From positions 81,842,001 through 81,906,000 of the forward strand of contig NC_045696.1 in the NCBI RefSeq assembly GCF_009834535.1: a stretch of DNA of 64,000 nt, read 5' to 3'. A program made the position numbers and the translations under genes. The stretch is from Camelus ferus (lineage: Eukaryota). The notes beneath the pieces were generated by a model. It made no database searches. It was not told where the DNA came from and was given only the letters and a program-made list of their open reading frames with translations. This document shows, one piece after another, positions 2,581-64,000 of this stretch. The number at the start of each line of letters is the position of its first letter. Positions within the stretch are counted from its first letter, which is position 1.

Positions 2581-3727
2581 TTATCTCATTTCCTCCTCAC
2601 AGCAAACCCATGGTATAGGTACAATACTCTCATGGTTTCATAGAAGAGAAAGCTGAGGCACAAAGAGGCTCAGTAGCTGGTCCAGGGTTACACAGCTCAT
2701 AGTGGTGGAGGCAGGATTTAAACCCAGAGCTCACTCTTAACCCTCATGTCTCCTGGCCTCCAAGGCTACGGTTCTGTGTTCGAGGCCCTGAGTTCTCAGT
2801 GTTCCAGGCCCTGAGCCTTCATGGGCTTTTCAAGGTAGAAAATGGGGTCTCAAACTATTCTCATTTTTTTCCTAAAAATTCTAATAGAAATGGAATATTG
2901 GTCTACATTAATGCGATATATTTAACTAGGCAGGCAGGTTTCTTTCCTTTGTTGGGAATGACATCAAAACAAGGCGGCTGCACTGGACTTTTCATGCTCA
3001 TCAGGAGTTCTCATTCATTCATTCAACAAACGTTAAGTGCCAATTTTCTGCAGTCTATAAGACAGAATCACACACTAGATGTTCTAAGGGCCATAACAGT
3101 AACATGCACTAGACACTCTGAAAGTCCACAAAAGAAAGTGGACAGCTCTGAACAGCAGTTATGTATTATGCCACTGGTAAGTGAAAAATGGCAAAGTAAA
3201 TTGTAGGGCAATATATGCATGTTGCTAAGTGGTGAAATAAAAGATGGAGTCCCTAAGTAGAGGTGTGGGATAATAAAATGCTATGAGAAGGTTGGGAATA
3301 CACTGTCAGTGACCCATAACTATTTAACCCAGTGTAGAAAATGCAAATTCCTGTCTGGCACCTACGTGAGTATAGTGAGCTGGATGTCAAATAGGAGGTG
3401 GGGACAGAAGAGACCTCAAGAGCCCATATCCTGTCTAAAGAGGCAGCCAGTTCTCACCTCCAGCCAAAAGTCTCCAGATAGGAATGTGGGTGCAGTGTTG
3501 TCAGACCTTCTGACTTTTTTAGGGGAAGCTGTAAATATGGGTTGCTTAACGCAAGATCTCCCAATTTTTAAATGGCATCTAATTTGAGTCTTTTCAAAAC
3601 ACTGTAGACCAAAGAAAACACATCCACCACCAGCTCTGCATTCACCATCAAGAGTGATCTCCCTGCTTGTCCCATGGATCCCAAAGCAACTGCTTATTCA
3701 CCTGTGCCTCCCCCTCCCTCGCTGCAG

Positions 3728-4050
3728 GTATGCTCATTTATTTTGGATACGGCATCTGGAACAGCACCCTGGAAATCAGCGCCCGAGAAGCAGCCCTGCA
3801 CCAAAGCACGTACCAGCGCTACGACGTGGACGACCCCTTCTCGGTGGAGGAGGGTTTCTCCTACGCCACAGAGGGCGAGAGCCAGGAGAACTGGGGCGGG
3901 CCAGCGGAAGACAAAGGCTTCTATTACCAGCAAATGTCAGATGCGCAGGCAAACACCCGGACAAGTAGCAAAGCGAAGAGCAAAAGCAAACACAAACAGA
4001 ACTCAGAGGCCCTGATTGCAAACGATGAGTTAGATTACTCTCCAGAGTAG
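3728..4050 (+). CDS. SLC7A14: SLC7A14 (cationic amino acid transporter family) terminal coding exon
   Basis: Pyrimidine tract plus CAG acceptor (AG 3726-3727), phase 1. Translates (G)MLIYFGYGIWNSTLEISARE...KHKQNSEALIANDELDYSPE-TAG (4048-4050), the recognisable SLC7A14 C-terminus. Upstream exons lie outside the window. Confidence 0.96.
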
Positions 4051-6309: not shown

Positions 6310-6456
6310 AAAATAACTTAGTTTTATTTTATTTTATTTTTGGAAGGGAGGTAATTAGGTTTACTTATTTATTTTTTTCAGAGGAGGTACTGGAATTGAA
6401 CCCAGGACCTCATGCAAGTTAAGCATGCGCTCTATCATTTGAGCTATGTACTCCCC
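6310..6456 (-). mobile_element. tRNA-Ala-derived camelid-type SINE (Vic-1-like) in the SLC7A14 3'UTR
   Basis: Reverse complement reads GGGGAG..TAGCTCAAATGATAGAGCGCATGCTTAACTTGCATGAGGTCCTGGGTTCAATTCCAGTACCTCC plus an A-rich tail. TSD agcatctctatatttt at ~6293 and ~6457. Confidence 0.85.
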
Positions 6457-21237: not shown

Positions 21238-21385
21238 CTTTTTTTTTTTTTTTTTTTGAGGTGGGGAGGGAGGTAATTAAGTTTACCCATTTATTTACTT
21301 TTTTTAGAGGAAGTACTGAGGATTGAACCCAGGACCTCGTGCATGCTAAGCACGCACTCTACCACTTTGAGCTATACCCTCACCC
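21238..21385 (-). mobile_element. Camelid-type tRNA-derived SINE
   Basis: Reverse complement GGGTGAGGGTATAGCTCAAAGTGGTAGAGTGCGTGCTTAGCATGCACGAGGTCCTGGGTTCAATCC with a polyA tail. Confidence 0.85.
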
Positions 21386-35685: not shown

Positions 35686-35810
35686 TATATTTATTTTATT
35701 TGGGGGGGTTATTATGTTTATTTATTTATTTTGATGGAGGTACTGGGGATTGAACCCAGGACCTCATGCATGCTAAGCACACACTCTACAACTGAGCTAT
35801 ACCCTTCCCC
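35686..35810 (-). mobile_element. Camelid-type tRNA-derived SINE in CLDN11 intron 2
   Basis: Same tRNA-Ala-like head and A-rich tail as the other copies. Flanking repeat caggcttttt at 35671 and 35811. Confidence 0.85.
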
Positions 35811-48782: not shown

Positions 48783-51700
48783 AAATAAAAGAGTGGTAAG
48801 AAAAATGATGAACTACGAAACTCCAAGCCCTCATTCTCCACAGCAGCATCCAAAAAAGAGAGAGACAGAATGCTGGGACCAACTTTGTTGATGCTCTGGA
48901 AAATAGTCAAAGGTTTATAGCAATCAAACCAACACACAATCAAGGAAAAGCCATTCGTAAAGCTAGGAAATACAACTTTTTATTTCATAATTAGAGCTAA
49001 GATTTAGAATGCAAGCACCTGAAGATAGAAACAGTGTTTTATTTTACCTTCACACTGAAGTACTTGGTGAGACAGAAAGAAACCTGACCAAGGAACAGGA
49101 ACACCAATTTTCCATGAAGTGAAAGAGATTCTAAGAGTATTGGGTGCTTAAGCTCAGAGTCAAGTCTTGGCATGTCAGAATCTTAATCAGGAATAAAAAT
49201 TCTTCCCCGTGTCAGTAAGCAATATCCCAGGAAGTTCCCTACTTACAAATGGTTTGTGTTACAAAGTTTTGTTTGGAAATTAAAATGGAGAAACAATCAT
49301 ATAAAAAAAATTACAGAGCCACTGATGAAATAATTGAGAAAATTTGCAATGCAAAAACGTTATATACAAAGCTCTGAGTCAGGGTTTCTGCTGAGCAGGA
49401 TGGTGGTGCCTTTTTAAAAATTCTTTTCCTAATGCTTGGGGATTATTCTGATTTGTGGGGCTTCTTCACGAGGTAGAAGGCAGAAACTTGGTTCCCTTCC
49501 TTGTAGCAAGGGTCTCAGATTTCCCCTCCTCTCTATTTATATTCTAATGAGAAGGACCTGGGGAAGGAGGAGGCATGTGGAGCACATTCTGGTGAACCGG
49601 GCAGCAGTGAGGTCCAGCTTTAAAGAAGCAGGTGTCTGGGTGGAGCCCGTTACCCAGCTCTGGTGACTGGGGGCCATTCCCTTGAGCCCAGTGCCCGGAA
49701 CAGTAGGACCCCCATCAGAGCAATGGTGGTGTAATTTGTCAGCAGTTCCTGACTGCATAGCCTCCTAACCTGACTTTGAGACCCTCTCTCAGACATTGTA
49801 CAAACTGCTGACTCTTCTTTAATCAATTCCTTTCATATTAAAACTAACTAGAGTGGGTTCCACTATTTGCAACTACAATATCTGATGTAGTTTCTTCCCC
49901 AGTGATGTTTGGGATGACTCGCTTAGCAGCGGGGTGGGGGTACATGATCTTTTCCTTGTCTTTGCCCACAAGCTGCATTGATTCCACACACCAGAGTTAA
50001 ACAAAGTTGCAGGTATTTTTGCGTCAGTCCCAGAAGCAGCCTGTGAAATGGAAAGGACATTGGATCCGGAGGGCAGGCCATGGCTCTAGTCTACCTTACC
50101 ACTCTCTTGCTGCAGTGGTTTTATGCAAGTCATTTCTTCTGTTTAGGCCTTAGTTTTCTTATTTGTGAAATAAGAGAATTATACTCAACAAACTCTAAGG
50201 TCCCTTCCAATTTCAGCAGCCTGTGATGAACCGCTTTGGTGTTTTTATTATTTGAGAGTTTTTATTATTTGAGAGTTATTTCTGTTGTCCAGATCTGCGC
50301 TATCTGATACATGAGCTACTAACCACATGTGGCTATTTAAGTTTAAGTTGACTAAAATTCAACAAGTTTACAAATTTAGCTCCTTAGCTGCACTAGCCAC
50401 ATTTTAAGTGCTCATTGGTCACATGTAGCTACTGGCTATCATATTGGACAGTGCAGATATGGAACATTTCCATCATCGTGAACATTCTCTTGGCTAACAC
50501 TGGCCTAGATGATAATGCCACTTGTCTACTTCCTTTGTTGAGATGCTGGGTGTTCTATTGTATTTCTCCCTGTGTACTTGAAAGATCAACATCCATTGTA
50601 TTAGCCATTCAGCTTGCCCCAAATGGAATTCCTTATCTACTCTTCCCTCTCTCAATAGCCCCTTTGTCCCAACCCTACTCTCTCCTCTATCTTAGGGAGT
50701 GGCATCCCATCCACATTAACCAAGGCAGAAACCGTGGGGTCAGTCTGGAAATGTCCTTCTTCATCTCCCCCCACATTCCCCATTTTGGTCCCTGAATTCT
50801 GTCATTTCCTCCTATTAAATATTAAGTGAACATGCCCTGTTTCCTCACTTCTGTGGTGTCTGCCATCACCGAGGCCCCCCCTCATCTTCCGCTTCCCTTC
50901 TATTATGAACCTCACCTTTACTTTCTTCCTCATTCCAGTCTGTCCCCTCAATTTACACCCAGGGTTATTGAATTAAAACAATTTGCAGACAAACCAACAA
51001 AAGGCAGTTTCAATTCACCCTTCTCCTTCCTCCACAGCCATGTATTCAACTGCCTTTTCCAGACTTAACATTTAGTCCATGCACAATCGCGGTTAACTTT
51101 TATTCATTTCCCATTTTCTTCTTTCATTCATTTTCTTCTTTCTTTTTGTGCGTGCTTGTGCCCCTCTTCCTGTATAGGCCTTCTCAGCACGCGGTTCAGA
51201 GGTCACCTCAGTAAAGTTCTTGCTGACTCCCCTGGAAGATTTAGGGGCCCCCCATGGGGTGCTCTGCCATCCTGTAGGTAAGGGTCAGTAGCTGGGGCTC
51301 AGGCTCTGGCGTCCAGCTGCCTGGGTTTGGATGCCTCTTGCATCACTATTTACTCTATAACCAACTTGACAGCTCTGTACTTGACTTTCTGCATCTGTAA
51401 CATGAGTACTAGTAATAATACATCCCTCCTTCATTGGGCCTTTTTTAAGAATTACATGACATATATTTAAAGTGCTTAAAATTGCACTCAGCATGGGGGA
51501 AGCACCTAATAATTGTTCGTTGTTGTCATCATCATTATACTCTCTCTTGCCATCTTGTTCATCCTCTGGATGTTAGCAGACTGAATGGCAACGCTGATTT
51601 TTTTTTTTTTAAGAGAAATCTAGGATTCTCCTTTCTCATGGGTTTGATGAATTATATGTAAGCTCCTTGAGAGCCAGAATCATGAGGTTGCTTTCTCCTA

Positions 51701-55449: not shown

Positions 55450-55597
55450 GAGGGGAGGGTATAGCTCAAGTGGCAGAGTACGTGCTTAGCATGCATGAGG
55501 TCCTGGGTTCAAGCCCCAGTATGCCATCTAAAATTAAATAAATAAATAAAACTAACTACCCCCCCCAACACATTAAATTTAAAAATTAAAAAAAAAA
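55450..55597 (+). mobile_element. Camelid-type tRNA-derived SINE nested in L1
   Basis: GGGGAGGGTATAGCTCAAGTGGCAGAGTACGTGCTTAGCATGCATGAGGTCCTGGGTTCAAGCCCC. TSD aaaactttYgtgcatca on both sides. Confidence 0.88.
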
Positions 55598-56849: not shown

Positions 56850-59800
56850 AATTCCATTGGCATTAAAAGTTTTTATTTGGAATTTAATCCACAATCTATA
56901 CAAGTTATTTACAAGGCATGAAAATGGAAAACAGCGCAAAATACAATTGAGGTATAAGCTAAGAGCACAGTATGTCATGTTTCAATAAATATAATTCAAA
57001 ATTTGTAAACTAACTGACCAGATAGATGAGTCTTGTTTTATAGTAAAACCATATAAAATATTTATTTCACGTGAGGTAGAGGACAGTTTTGTGTGTCATG
57101 TAATGCAACCAACCACAGCAATTTTAACCATAAAACTGTACATCATTGGCAAAATTTTAAATTGAATTATGGTCAATGTAGTCAACAATTTGTGTCAATA
57201 GTTGCACAACAGATCTTTCATTTACCGCGTTCACAGATTAGAAATTCAGAAATAATTTAAGACTACTGTGTTGGCTTAAAATTATCAGGATAAATAAATA
57301 CTTCTAATAGGATGGTTAAAAGCAAATATATTTTATTTCTTCCAAACTATAATTCCCCAAAAGTTGTTCAAGATTTAGCAATTCTTTTAGTAGGATTTTT
57401 TTTTTTCACTAGAACTACTTTAAGTATGCTGTGCTTTATTTTCAAGTGAGGTATCTATATTGAAGAAAAAACTTTGTAAATTTCTTTACATTCAACCAAC
57501 TTAATACACTATTTTGTTTTCTGGGCTTAATTTTTAAATTTCAATTTTTACATTTGTTCATTTTAATTCAAAAACAGTAGCACTATATAAGACATTTAAG
57601 TCTATCACTAAAGAAACAAGCTCCAAATTGCATTATGTAATTTAGAAACCATTGAAAATGGGAAGATTTTACAAAAGAAAAAAAAAAACTGTCCTTTTAA
57701 ACAAGATGCAATATAGACTACCCATATGAATTTCTTCCAATAATAGAAATAAATTTAAGCTGTTTAAATTATTCAATCCCACAATTTATAATACAGCAGT
57801 AATGTGTCCCTTATTGCTGACAGTTTCAATAAAAATAAGTAGTTTCAAGCACAGAAATAGATGTACAGTATGAGCACAACTTTCCATTATATTAATTTTT
57901 AATGTCCTGTCACGCAGATTAAATGTATAAGAGCAAATAAAAACGAGGATTCTTCCCTAAGCAATCAAAACATAAGTCATGGACAACAAAATTTTAGAAA
58001 CTGATCAAAAACCTTCAGCACCAGCTTTCCTATTACTTTCAGGGAAATAAAACATGTTTTCTGTTACTCGAGTTGCCTTATCATTTTACTTTCCTTCAAA
58101 CAGAAGCCATAGATGTGCAAATAAATTGGCTATTCTGTCATGACTTCTAAAATATATGGATAACCTGCAAGTATCATTGTACTCAGTCTATTATTTAGTA
58201 ACTGATTTTTAATTCAATATGTACACATGATTTTATATCTCAATTGGTAATATATTAAATATGTTATAAAATTAGTTCAAGAAGCATAAAACATCCCAAC
58301 TCTTCTGGACACAGAAATTCAAAAGCAAAAGAATATGCTTTACAAAACTAAAGCACAAGCCAAAATTATATTGTTGGTCAAATCCTTTGATAGTGTCCTA
58401 AGTTGTATTTGTGATATCAGGGTGGTTTAGAGCTTTCTCAATGACAGCAGGTTTTATGTTTCTATAGATTTGGTACCTTCTTCTCATGAAGTTTAGAGTA
58501 TAGAAACTGTCGTCACCCAAATTAAACATCACTTGTCACCCAGTAAACTAATATTCTATCTTTTCTTCTTTTTAAAGATGCTCTAGCACTCTTGATAGGC
58601 CATTCCTTTAACACAGGTTTTTAAAGTAAATATTTTTGTATTTTTCCTACAAAGAATAACATTATAAAGTCTGAGGGAAAATCTGCTTTCCTGATGAATT
58701 GGCACACAAAAACTAACACCAAAACAACTAACACCAAAACAAACTTCAGGCTAGCAATCAACACACAAAATGAGCATGCCAAGAATAAGAGTAAGTTTAT
58801 ACGGGTATTTTAAGCAGAGGCCACTTGTAAAGTATTACAAAGTCTCAATAGTTTCAAGCTATGTGGTACAAGTTTAACTTAAAATGACTTTTAACTAGAA
58901 TAGGCATAATATTTACAATTGACTAAAAAAAACTATTTTCAAAGAAGTTAGACAGAAACCTATGGCACATCGATGTAGCTTCTGGAAAATAAAGACTATA
59001 CAATTTCACGTGGCAAGTTTCCCTTATGTGAAGGACCAGAAAAAGCAGTTCTTTACTCAATTTTAAACTAAGAGTTTATGAAATTTAAAGGTAATTAAGC
59101 ACTGCTTAGAATTTTCAAATAACATATTTCAAAGATTAGGCAATTTATTTTAGAAGTTTTGAGTTAAAACCTAAGTAAGCTAATTATTTAAACTAAGTAA
59201 CATAAGTAGATTTTGAGTGAATCAGAAAAATAAATGAAATTACAGGGCCTTGAGTTTTGTCTCCCAAAAAGCTTAGCTATGACACAGCTAATTTACAACT
59301 AAAATGAAACTATGTCATAAAATGTCTTTGTGATTTTTCTTTCTCCAGATAAAGATAAATAAGAGGTAATAGGAGGGCATGTCACTTTTAATATTTGTTC
59401 CTATATGTCATTTTAGACATGTGTTCCTCCTTGAGTAGGTTCCAATAATCAACAAAGTAAACTGCAGGGTTAATATAGTAAAATTTGAATGGAAAATAGA
59501 AAATAAACACTTAGACCACACTCTAGTGAAGAAACTATACTTCGAGAAGTATAAAAATTCTTTTAGGATATATTAAGTACCATTAAGCAAAATATGAAAA
59601 TAACTGGTTAAATGATAACATCTTTATTTTTGAAGTTCTATATCATTAGAGTATCCATCACCTATGGTGGGAATAGTAAATAATCTTAATCCTAGCTGAA
59701 TTATTTTAAAAACAAATTTAGGTCTCAAGTTATTTCATACAATACCTTACACAAGAATATAAACATGAAATTCATGGGATAATAATGTCAATTAATGGCA

Positions 59801-61084
59801 GATTCTGGAAAAGTCTTTTAAAAAATACATACTAAGAATTTTACCTAGTACCTGTTAAGCCAAGATTTAAGTAATATGAAATTTGCTATTAAAAGAATGA
59901 CAGGCTTTCTGTGCAAAAAAAAAAAAAAAAAAAAAAGTGCAGAAGTTGCCCCTCCCCCAAACTATGGAATTCCTTTGTCTTCTAAAAATTATCTAAAAAT
60001 CTTTTAGTAGCAATAACTAAACACTACCAGCTGACTGTATATTCCTGATTTTGATATTAAATAGTAACTGAAAATGGTCCATTCGTGCAAATTTTGGTAA
60101 GACTTGACATTTAAACATACAAAAGTCCAAAATAATCTTCAAGGTGTTTAATATTTTACAATTTAAAGGAAAACAAATCCATTAAGGAAAACAAATCCAT
60201 TATATAAATTGTAGTAAGACCCATAACTACATATAAAAACTGTACAGGAGGATTATGGATTGTATAGAAACTGATACACATCAATGTTATCAGTTTTTCT
60301 CAAGTACATTAATATTCTCACACCACTATTAACAACATAAACAGAAGCTCAAAAATTATTACATTTTATTCCCTCTCCTGAAGTTGCTGCATAAAAATTT
60401 TTTTCTAAATATAACCCCATTTAAACAAAAAAAGCTAATTATAACTGCTTCTTGTGTTTAGCAGCAGTGTGTAAGAAAGCATATAATCCTTCCCCATGGG
60501 GTGTGCTATAACCCTCTATGGACAAAATGTCTCTCAGGAGACATTAAATAGAAGACAATCAGTGGAAATTCATTCCACAATATTAACAAAAGCAAATTTT
60601 GATTATAATAATGAGATTACTACATCAACTTAGACAGGAGACTGTATTAATAAAAAACATGGAGATTCAACTCCTTGAGTGGCTCTATAAATGAAATATG
60701 AAGCCGCCATTGTATCTAAAATTGAGTCTGAAATATGGATAACAAAACTGACCACAACTATTTTCCACCACACAATGCAGCTTTTAAAAAGTATGCAACT
60801 GCTAAATTTGCATTAGAAATATAGGCAGATAATATTATAGTTGAAATCATATAGTACTGTTACTAAGCTAGTTGAAAAAAAGTTCAAAGAAACATACACT
60901 TTCATTCATTTGGAAAATGTAAAAATTGATGTACCAATATATAATCTCTTCACTTTCTCTGACCTACAAATGGATAGAATGCCTAGTTATTTCATGCAGA
61001 TAAATTGTTCAGAATTCAATGACCAAGCAAACAAACAAAAATAAACCCTGTTGGGAATACACAGATGAATCTCTTTAAAGATTT
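56850..61084 (-). other. SKIL: SKIL long AU-rich 3'UTR
   Basis: Apparently transposon-free AT-rich region between the stop codon and the distal AATAAA, containing miRNA seed matches. Confidence 0.7.
56872..56877 (-). terminator. SKIL: Probable SKIL distal polyadenylation signal
   Basis: Minus strand ccAAATAAAaacttttaatgccaatgg at the end of an apparently repeat-free, AU-rich 4.2-kb stretch after the SKIL stop. Confidence 0.7.
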
Positions 61085-61243: not shown

Positions 61244-61899
61244 CTGTGTGATTTAAAAGAGTGTGTCAGTTTTCACTTAGTTTTGTTTTTCCATTTACTC
61301 CTCACATCATGGCAAAGATCTACTTTCAAATTACTTTTTACAAAATGAGCTGTTTTATATATACTGCAATCTCCTGAACATCTAATACTATTAATCTGAC
61401 TTTGACATAACCTTAAAATGAGGGAAAAACAAAGGGTCAAGAGAACTGAACCTAGAGCACGTTCACGATGCCGTAACACTTCAGTACCCCTCTCATCACA
61501 GCCTGCTCACACTGAGTTATTTGTTCATCTTCCCCAAGTTGTGAGTTCATTTTTGCTCCAGGGCTTGTGAACACAGTGGGCAACAGTTCATGGTTGTTAA
61601 TTCACTTGATTTGAAAGCACATATACTACATTAAAATCATATAACATTTGATATTCAGACAGCTAGAGATTTAGACAACTCAATTACAGAAACCCATAAA
61701 AGTTTAAAGTAATAAAGCAATCAAGGTCAAAAAATCATCTTAGATGATACAGCATTAAGTTGTATTTAATGGAATTCTCTATTTTGAAATCTAGTCTAAT
61801 GAAACAAGCTTGAAAAAAAGTAATTTCTTTAATGAGTAAAGTAACAGCTTCAATTTCCACACTGAAAGGGCAACACTATACAAACTGAGTAATTCTTAC

Positions 61900-62124
61900 C
61901 TGCGCTGCATATTCAGCCTCTTTATCTTTTTCTAAATTTGAGTCACAGGTACATTTCTGCTTCATTACCTGCTCCAATTTTTTCTCTAAGTCCTTCTGTT
62001 CAACATAAAATTCTTCCATTTTATGAGCATGTTCATTCTGCAAAGATTCGAGCTCTTTCTGTAAATTCTGCTGTTCTTCAGTGAGCTCCTTCATAGCTTT
62101 TGAACTACTCAACATTTCAACTTC
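61900..62124 (-). CDS. SKIL: SKIL penultimate exon (225 nt, phase 0-0)
   Basis: ttacAG|GAA ... [49 protein letters not shown]...DKEAEYAAQ. Confidence 0.96.
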
Positions 62125-62419
62125 CTGTAATTTAAAGAATCACAATACAATTTTTACTTTACTTCCATCATGTTAAAATTTTCAAGTCAGGAAAGAACAG
62201 GACAGAAAAAATCTAAAATTCCACTGTCATATCAATTCTACATAGAAGTAATTATCTAGAAAAATTATTTTCTCTAAAGATTTAAAAGTATATTAATCTT
62301 TCTGATGAACGTAAAACTGAATAATCTTAAATACATTTGCAGCATGTTATCATGACTTTTCTTAAGAATACGCAGAAGTATCTTTTCACAATGGACTATT
62401 ATTTAGATAACAATTTTAC

Positions 62420-62662
62420 CATCTGAAGTTGTTGCTTCTTCTGTAAAATTGAGTTCAGTTTTTCCTGTTGTTTTACGTAAGTTTTCATTACTTCCTCCAT
62501 GATTTTTCCCTTATCATCCTCACAAATGACATCTTTGACAAGAACTGGAGGATGAAGCTACAGCATCATGGTCAGCTCCCACCTTGCTTGTGTCCCTGGT
62601 TGAGTTGCAGGTAGTAGACTCAGGTTTCTTTTTACTTGTAGAATTACTCGAAACTGATGGAT
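62420..62662 (-). CDS. SKIL: SKIL antepenultimate exon (243 nt as assembled, with an apparent +1 frameshift)
   Basis: tctcaaAG|AT ... ATG|GTAAAA. The 5' part reads (D)[19 protein letters not shown].. and the 3' part [43 protein letters not shown], but the two SnoN-like halves are in different frames. Confidence 0.9.
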
Positions 62663-62719
62663 CTTTGAGAGGCAAAAATGAAGTAAGAGTATTAATATCA
62701 CTCTGTTAAAAAGTAACTT

Positions 62720-64000
62720 GAACAATCCATAAATGAAATTAAGACGATAACCCCACTTACAAATAAAATAAAAGATAATAAAATACTTACGAATGAATTT
62801 AACAAAAGAGTATAAAACATGTACAATGAAAACTATAAAACATCATTTAAAGAAATAAAAGACTAAAAAATGGAAAGGCATCCCATGTTTGTGGATTGGA
62901 AGACTTAATATTGTTAAGATGCTATCATGATCTGAATGTCAGTGACTTTCAAAATTCACATGTTGAAATCGTAACCCCCAATGTGATGGTTTAGGAGGTG
63001 GGGCCTTTGGGAGGTAATTAGGTCACAAGGGTCATAAGAGCCCCCATCATGGGATTTATGACCTTAAAAAGAGATTTCAGAGAGCTCTACCATTTAACCA
63101 CGCAGAAGACAGTGAAAAGACAGCCATCTATGAACCAGGTAGCAGGTCCTTGCCAGACCAAATCTGTTGGTGCCTTGATCTTGGACTTCCCAGCCTCTAG
63201 ACTGTGAAAAATAAATGTTTGTGGTGTCAGCCACTCAGTCTATGGTATTTTTGTTATAGCAGCCCAAAGGGACAATGATAAATGGTAAAACACCCCCAAA
63301 CTGATCTATGTTTTTAGTGCAATCTCTATCAAAATCCCAACTGGCTTCATGGCAGAAATAGACAAGCTGATTCTAAAACTCATATGGAAATAAAAGGAAG
63401 CCAAAATAGCCAAAACAATCTTGAAAAAGAACAATAAAGTTGGAGGACTCACAATCTCCAATTTGAAAGCTCATTACAAAGCTACAGAAATCAAAACTGT
63501 GTGCAGTACTGGCATAAGGATTGAGTCCAGAAATAAACTCATACTTTTATGGGCAACTGGTTTTCAACAATGGTGCCAAGACAGTTCAATTGGGAAAGAG
63601 AAGTCTTTTCAACAGTGTTGGGACAACTGTACCTATATACAGAGAATGAGGTTCATACCTTACATAAAAATTAACTCAAAATGGATCACAGACTTAAATG
63701 TAAGAGCCAAAACTCTTAACTGTAAATCTTTGTAAGCTTGGACTAGGCAATGGTTTCTTAGACATGACACCTAAAGTAAGCAACCAAAGAAAAACTAAAC
63801 TGGACTCCATCAGAATCTAAAACTTTTGTTCTTCAAAGGACACTAACAAGGAAGTGAAAAGGCAATTGACAGAATGGCATATTATGTAGATAAGGGTCTA
63901 GTACCCAGAATGAATAAAGAACTCCTATAACTCAATAGTAAAGAGACAAATAACCCTACTTAAAAATAGGCACAAGATCTCAATAGGCACTTTTCCAAAG
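62720..64000 (+). mobile_element. Degenerate L1 ORF2 fragment in a SKIL intron (antisense to SKIL), interrupted by an MLT1A/MST-like LTR at ~62925-63272
   Basis: ORF 63421-63735 (KKNNKVGGLTISNLKAHYKATEIKTV..KINSKWITDLNVRAKT) is L1 ORF2-like. The LTR resembles 22300-22645. Confidence 0.85.

Follow-up and report, generated by a model that had tools for sequence, protein, structure and literature searches.

Single-base lesions in otherwise sound camelid genes have been described before. PMC12127551, in which all camelids are compared, notes in section 34 that lesions of this kind are frequently sequencing errors, which RefSeq has corrected. The corrected frameshifts treated in sections 11 and 34 of that paper resemble the one reported here, being likewise single isolated indels in otherwise conserved genes, and lacking from the proteins of sister species. 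In the sections of PMC12127551 consulted, only lesions that the three camel species of the Old World have in common were sought. Uncorrected PacBio indels in camel assemblies were assessed in PMC7468183 and, as far as the consulted portion of that paper goes, few were found in the dromedary assemblies tested.

Shortened forms of SnoN, the protein encoded by SKIL, are also on record. In the consulted parts of PMC5992185, SnoI (399 aa) and SnoA (415 aa) are described as keeping the N-terminal Dachshund-homology (DHD) and Smad4-binding domains, as would the 523-aa product predicted from the frameshift described below, and like that product they are without the C-terminal dimerisation region. They differ from it in that they arise by alternative splicing and not from a genomic indel, and they end some 110-125 residues earlier. 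The same parts of PMC5992185 report that in mice one Skil knockout was embryo-lethal and others gave viable animals with T-cell defects, and that heterozygous mice develop lymphoma. The cost of losing SnoN in the mouse disfavours a real truncating allele in a camelid, without making it impossible.

The window analysed here is the whole stretch of 64,000 nucleotides from the Camelus ferus assembly (contig NC_045696.1, positions 81,842,001 to 81,906,000), and all coordinates below are counted from its first letter. The assembled SKIL orthologue in this window carries a +1 frameshift. We consider that the surplus base is very probably a one-base consensus error of the assembly and not part of the animal's DNA, and we present the evidence for this reading together with the alternatives.

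The SKIL locus

SKIL is represented in the window by its final three coding exons, all on the minus strand; those before them fall past the end of the window. The first of the three, at 62662-62420, is an internal coding exon that we take to be exon 5 in the usual numbering. It is assembled at 243 nt, while camelid SnoN residues 477-557 need 242 nt (2 bases of codon 477 plus 80 codons). A normal splice acceptor AG (62663..62664, minus strand, 11 of 14 upstream positions being pyrimidines) precedes it and a splice donor GT (GTAAAA; 62418..62419, minus strand) follows it. The next exon (62124-61900, minus strand, 225 nt) is intact and encodes 75 residues, all 75 the same as in SnoN 558-632 of alpaca and Camelus. 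The last coding exon (61243-61085, minus strand, 159 nt including the TAA) is equally intact, with 52 of 52 residues matching camelid SnoN 633-684. AG/GT ends were found at the three exons. An earlier note on this DNA, made from the letters alone, had counted 243 nt where 242 are required and had judged the downstream exons and splice sites to be undamaged; both observations are borne out.

The same note had named the gene as SKIL, and this too is upheld. A search with the 225-nt exon returned 367 proteins; of the 120 listed, those that bear a name were SKIL or ski-like. The closest identity among these 120 listed matches was to an alpaca protein (99%, including one intronic residue), the Ski-like protein of Vicugna pacos (P0004; XP_072816849.1 / XP_015091927.1). 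The cluster of this protein also includes the Ski-like protein of Camelus bactrianus (P0127; XP_074224025.1 / XP_010950400.1), in which the Dachshund-homology (PF02437) and Smad4-binding (PF08782) domains were found. Apart from the frame break, the exons in the window are 100% identical to camelid SnoN 477-684. A search of the PDB with the 225-nt exon gave weak chance matches only (best E 0.077). The gene contains introns and is not a retrocopy, as there are three spliced exons with an intact CLDN11 downstream on the same strand; we assume that the gene order SKIL-CLDN11-SLC7A14 is conserved. The intron upstream of the 243-nt exon contains a decayed LINE-1-like piece at about 63000-64000, where a plus-strand frame (63394-63732) presumably resembles L1 ORF2.

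Neighbouring features

The three CLDN11 exons (41516-41291, 37854-37690 and 29072-28840, minus strand) are intact, and 207 of 207 residues are identical to camelid claudin-11 (P0192). Camelid claudin-11 departs from the other claudin-11 proteins fetched at three conserved positions (Q7L, A87G and C105F). Leucine at position 7 occurs in 1 of 39 proteins, glycine at 87 in 1 of 46 and phenylalanine at 105 in 3 of 57, the last also in Daubentonia. C105, we believe, comes after the second membrane helix and is a possible site of palmitoylation. That these three residues are assembly errors was rejected, since they are identical in P0192.

On the plus strand an open frame at 3658-4050 ends in DELDYSPE and a stop; it looks to us like the last exon of SLC7A14, converging on CLDN11. 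Four modest Rfam tRNA matches (29.6-45.4 bits; 6389-6447, 21308-21381, 35735-35806 and 55458-55526) are probably the heads of tRNA-derived SINEs rather than tRNA genes. Stretches of 17, 15 and 18 bases are perfectly duplicated in tandem at 50241-50277, 58711-58742 and 60166-60202, and these could be recent microduplications or assembly slips; the second and third are on the 3' side of the SKIL stop codon and probably belong to the 3' UTR or its vicinity.

The frameshift

Read from its acceptor, the 243-nt exon begins D-PSVSS, and the reading closes, after a final nine out-of-frame residues, at a TGA (62520..62522, minus strand), which is the premature stop that had been reported earlier. The SnoN-like 3' half lies in another frame, closed on its 5' side by a TAG (62558..62560, minus strand) just as the earlier note had it, and this half is thus not enterable from an upstream in-frame acceptor. 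An alternative upstream acceptor was considered for the 243-nt length and rejected, since from each of the four in-frame AGs 5' of the insertion the frame is stopped by this TAG.

With both the alpaca and the Camelus protein as queries, tblastn placed residues 477-514, of which 38 of 38 are identical, in frame -3; from residue 515 the match continued in frame -1, shifted by exactly +1 nt. The two halves of the exon were each matched by 130 of the 134 SKIL proteins, every offset being 1 mod 3; among the remaining four, two begin past the exon and two match the 3' half alone. The prediction that tblastn with a SKIL protein would reveal one frameshift here agrees with these offsets, +1 with alpaca and Camelus and 1 mod 3 with the others.

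When each of the 243 bases was removed in turn, exactly three removals yielded the camelid exon peptide (80 of 80 residues identical), namely those of C 62551, C 62550 or T 62549. The earlier proposal that taking out one C at 62550/62551 restores the frame is thus right, while its choice of base is not unique: the T at 62549 serves equally well. Since the three removals are equivalent, the surplus base is placed to 62549-62551 (minus strand), within the Ser-Ser-Pro codons and not in the GG alone, and may be read as either C or T. It falls after codon 514 of camelid SnoN.

Comparison with SKIL proteins

The alpaca and Camelus proteins are both full-length (684 aa) and, once one base at 62549-62551 is removed, both are identical to the window over residues 477-684. 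These camelid records read on past codon 514, where the window has one extra base. The two proteins differ from each other at four positions, all upstream of the exons in the window, so that these exons are camelid without telling one genus from the other. Full-length SKIL is represented by at least two accessions each for alpaca and Bactrian camel. By convention RefSeq flags a low-quality protein model in its name. No such label stands in the displayed camelid SKIL names, among the 15 of 114 cluster members listed. A RefSeq-corrected model would have the identical protein, and the identity is accordingly no proof that every camel assembly is intact.

The out-of-frame tail has left no trace in the proteins searched. 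Among 143 SKIL proteins, none contains a five-residue piece of it bearing a cysteine. With the frameshifted peptide itself as query there were 35 matches among 103 candidates, no match spanning more than 85% of the peptide, and absence in this search is weak evidence.

The site itself has changed length in other mammals. In the proteins of phyllostomid bats (P0135, P0137 and P0138) two extra in-frame serines stand at the site of the extra base, so that this run of serine codons does take real indels in evolution.

The lesion is isolated: the 1251 coding bases of the SKIL and CLDN11 exons, three of each gene, contain one indel and give no amino-acid difference. The want of other decay speaks against gene loss, yet it also means that errors do not visibly abound in the region. 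A fixed loss of the C-terminal region in the species or a population, that is, an early stage of gene loss, has the frameshift itself in its favour and nothing more, and we regard it as extremely improbable. The alpaca and Camelus records are full-length, a second lesion and amino-acid drift are both lacking, and sequencing runs from the same species should contain the stretch exactly as assembled (a share of 1.00 in the comparison below) unless another window-only difference exists. The locus does not have the look of a unitary pseudogene, the camelid proteins being full-length and a second lesion absent. The literature points the same way. SKIL has no mention in the main text of PMC12127551 and one in its six supplementary files, in the list of one-to-one orthologues; it is absent from the inactivation text and tables found there, the 58-gene list being figure S7, which may fall outside a text search. 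Our literature search found no paper linking loss of SKIL to camels.

Sequencing runs

Twenty-four sequencing runs were listed, and were compared with the window over 61800-62900 by 113 sampled words. The best 14 of the 24 each contained 0.96 of the sampled words and none reached 1.00. These 14 runs (eight marked "DNA?" and six of unknown kind) bear two organism labels and come from seven studies. The other ten comprise six RNA runs (0.09-0.54 of the words) and four additions from the same samples (0.00-0.41). For the RNA runs 0.35-0.38 would be expected from the two exons alone, against the 0.09-0.54 seen, and they were not counted as evidence.

A lone insertion breaks 30 of the 1071 words in this interval, and so 3.2 of the 113 sampled words are expected to be missing, while a share of 0.96 corresponds to four or five. 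The probability of four or five missing words is 0.305 for one insertion, 0.264 for two separate differences and 0.052 for three. The window thus probably has one or two features common to none of the top 14 runs, at places that the word share does not locate. The simplest candidate for a window-only feature is the gene-breaking base, although the word test gives no position. An exact 30-base pattern beside the site had no match in metagenome contigs.

The same picture would be given by a private or rare frameshift allele, probably heterozygous, that was captured in the haploid consensus or that arose in a cell line. Such an allele would have come about by replication slippage in the run of serine codons, and would lead to nonsense-mediated decay (NMD) or to a 523-aa SnoN without the dimerisation region. 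The run data are compatible with an allele absent from other individuals, the bats have in-frame indels at the site, and the rest of SKIL and CLDN11 in the window is error-free. Truncating alleles in constrained regulators, when real, are rarer than assembly indels, and this weighs against the allele. So do the out-of-frame tail, present in no protein record searched, and the absence of any listed run with all sampled words. The mouse data cut both ways, in that some of the Skil knockouts in mice are viable (PMC5992185, section 9) while heterozygotes develop lymphoma, according to the consulted parts of that source. On balance we hold a private allele to be quite unlikely.

Predicted consequences

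If the base were real, the transcript would be a predicted target of NMD. By the usual rule NMD is expected when the distance from a stop to the last exon junction downstream exceeds 50-55 nt, and the premature TGA precedes the next junction by 100 nt and the last one by 325 nt, a geometry that agrees with the fate foreseen in the earlier note. The predicted product would have 523 aa in place of 684, without residues 515-684, and the C-terminal region would be lost as had also been supposed. The DHD (aa 127-234) and the Smad4-binding domain (aa 261-355) would remain in the product. The dimerisation region that it would lack, a coiled coil described in the consulted parts of PMC5992185, falls within residues 515-684. 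Skipping of the exon was considered as a rescue and rejected, as the neighbouring exons require a length of 3n+2 and the frame would stay broken.

Three AGs 3' of the insertion are in frame and open to the donor, all on the minus strand. One is a CAG just 3' of the extra base (62545..62547), with 10 of 14 pyrimidines upstream, and its use would cost 39 codons. Another is an AAG (62535-62533), again with 10 of 14 pyrimidines upstream, which would drop 43 codons. The third (62492-62491) has 3 of 14 pyrimidines upstream. The possible acceptors at the CAG and AAG offer a route by which a real base could be tolerated. Splicing would shift to the CAG, or to the AAG; the 39 or 43 codons left out belong to a poorly conserved linker, and the C-terminal region would be preserved. 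Both AGs stand just past the insertion with the frame and pyrimidine content already given, the CAG accompanies the valine that camelids have at residue 516, and the skipped stretch matches at only about 44-84% in non-camelids. Against this, the shift depends on the base being real, the normal acceptor is intact, and such a junction is seen in none of the camelid proteins compared. We therefore consider the shift highly improbable.

At residue 516 the camelid valine occurs in 2 of the 98 proteins scored and leucine in 90; 45 of the 143 proteins, which did not fit the motif, were left out of this count. The CAG at 62545-62547 would exist, together with the valine 516 codon, in an intact allele as well. 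To judge from the letters, camelids may possess a minor SnoN isoform that lacks 39 residues through use of this in-exon CAG.

Taken as a whole, a natural truncating SKIL allele in the sequenced camelid, one that removes the dimerisation region and is possibly softened by the cryptic acceptor from the L516V codon, seems to us unlikely.

Conclusions

We return to the reading that the surplus base at 62549-62551 is an error of the assembly, which the earlier note had already thought the likelier explanation. It is supported by the intact alpaca and camel SKIL proteins, by the top runs at 0.96, no listed run having the stretch exactly as assembled, and by the absence of other decay. The error would probably be an insertion that polishing failed to remove from the short TCA-TCC-TCC-A run, such as the doubling of one C to CC. 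The true gene would then encode an ordinary 684-aa SnoN Smad co-repressor.

Several observations count against an error. CLDN11 is free of errors and the region is not visibly error-prone. The word share indicates that within 1.1 kb the window differs from the runs in one place or more, and two unrelated differences fit it almost equally well. A private allele of the assembled animal would give an identical picture in the runs, and the site tolerates real in-frame indels, as the phyllostomid bats demonstrate.

If the base is an error, there is a base to correct in the reference, since it can produce a false SKIL knockout in gene-loss screens and in variant calls for animals mapped to that reference. 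A real base would amount to one deleterious allele and still to no new mechanism. It would, all the same, be a natural truncation of SnoN in a large mammal, and would bear on the conflicting reports of lethal and of viable knockouts in mice and on the lymphoma risk of heterozygotes (both from the consulted parts of PMC5992185), and on the health of breeding lines.
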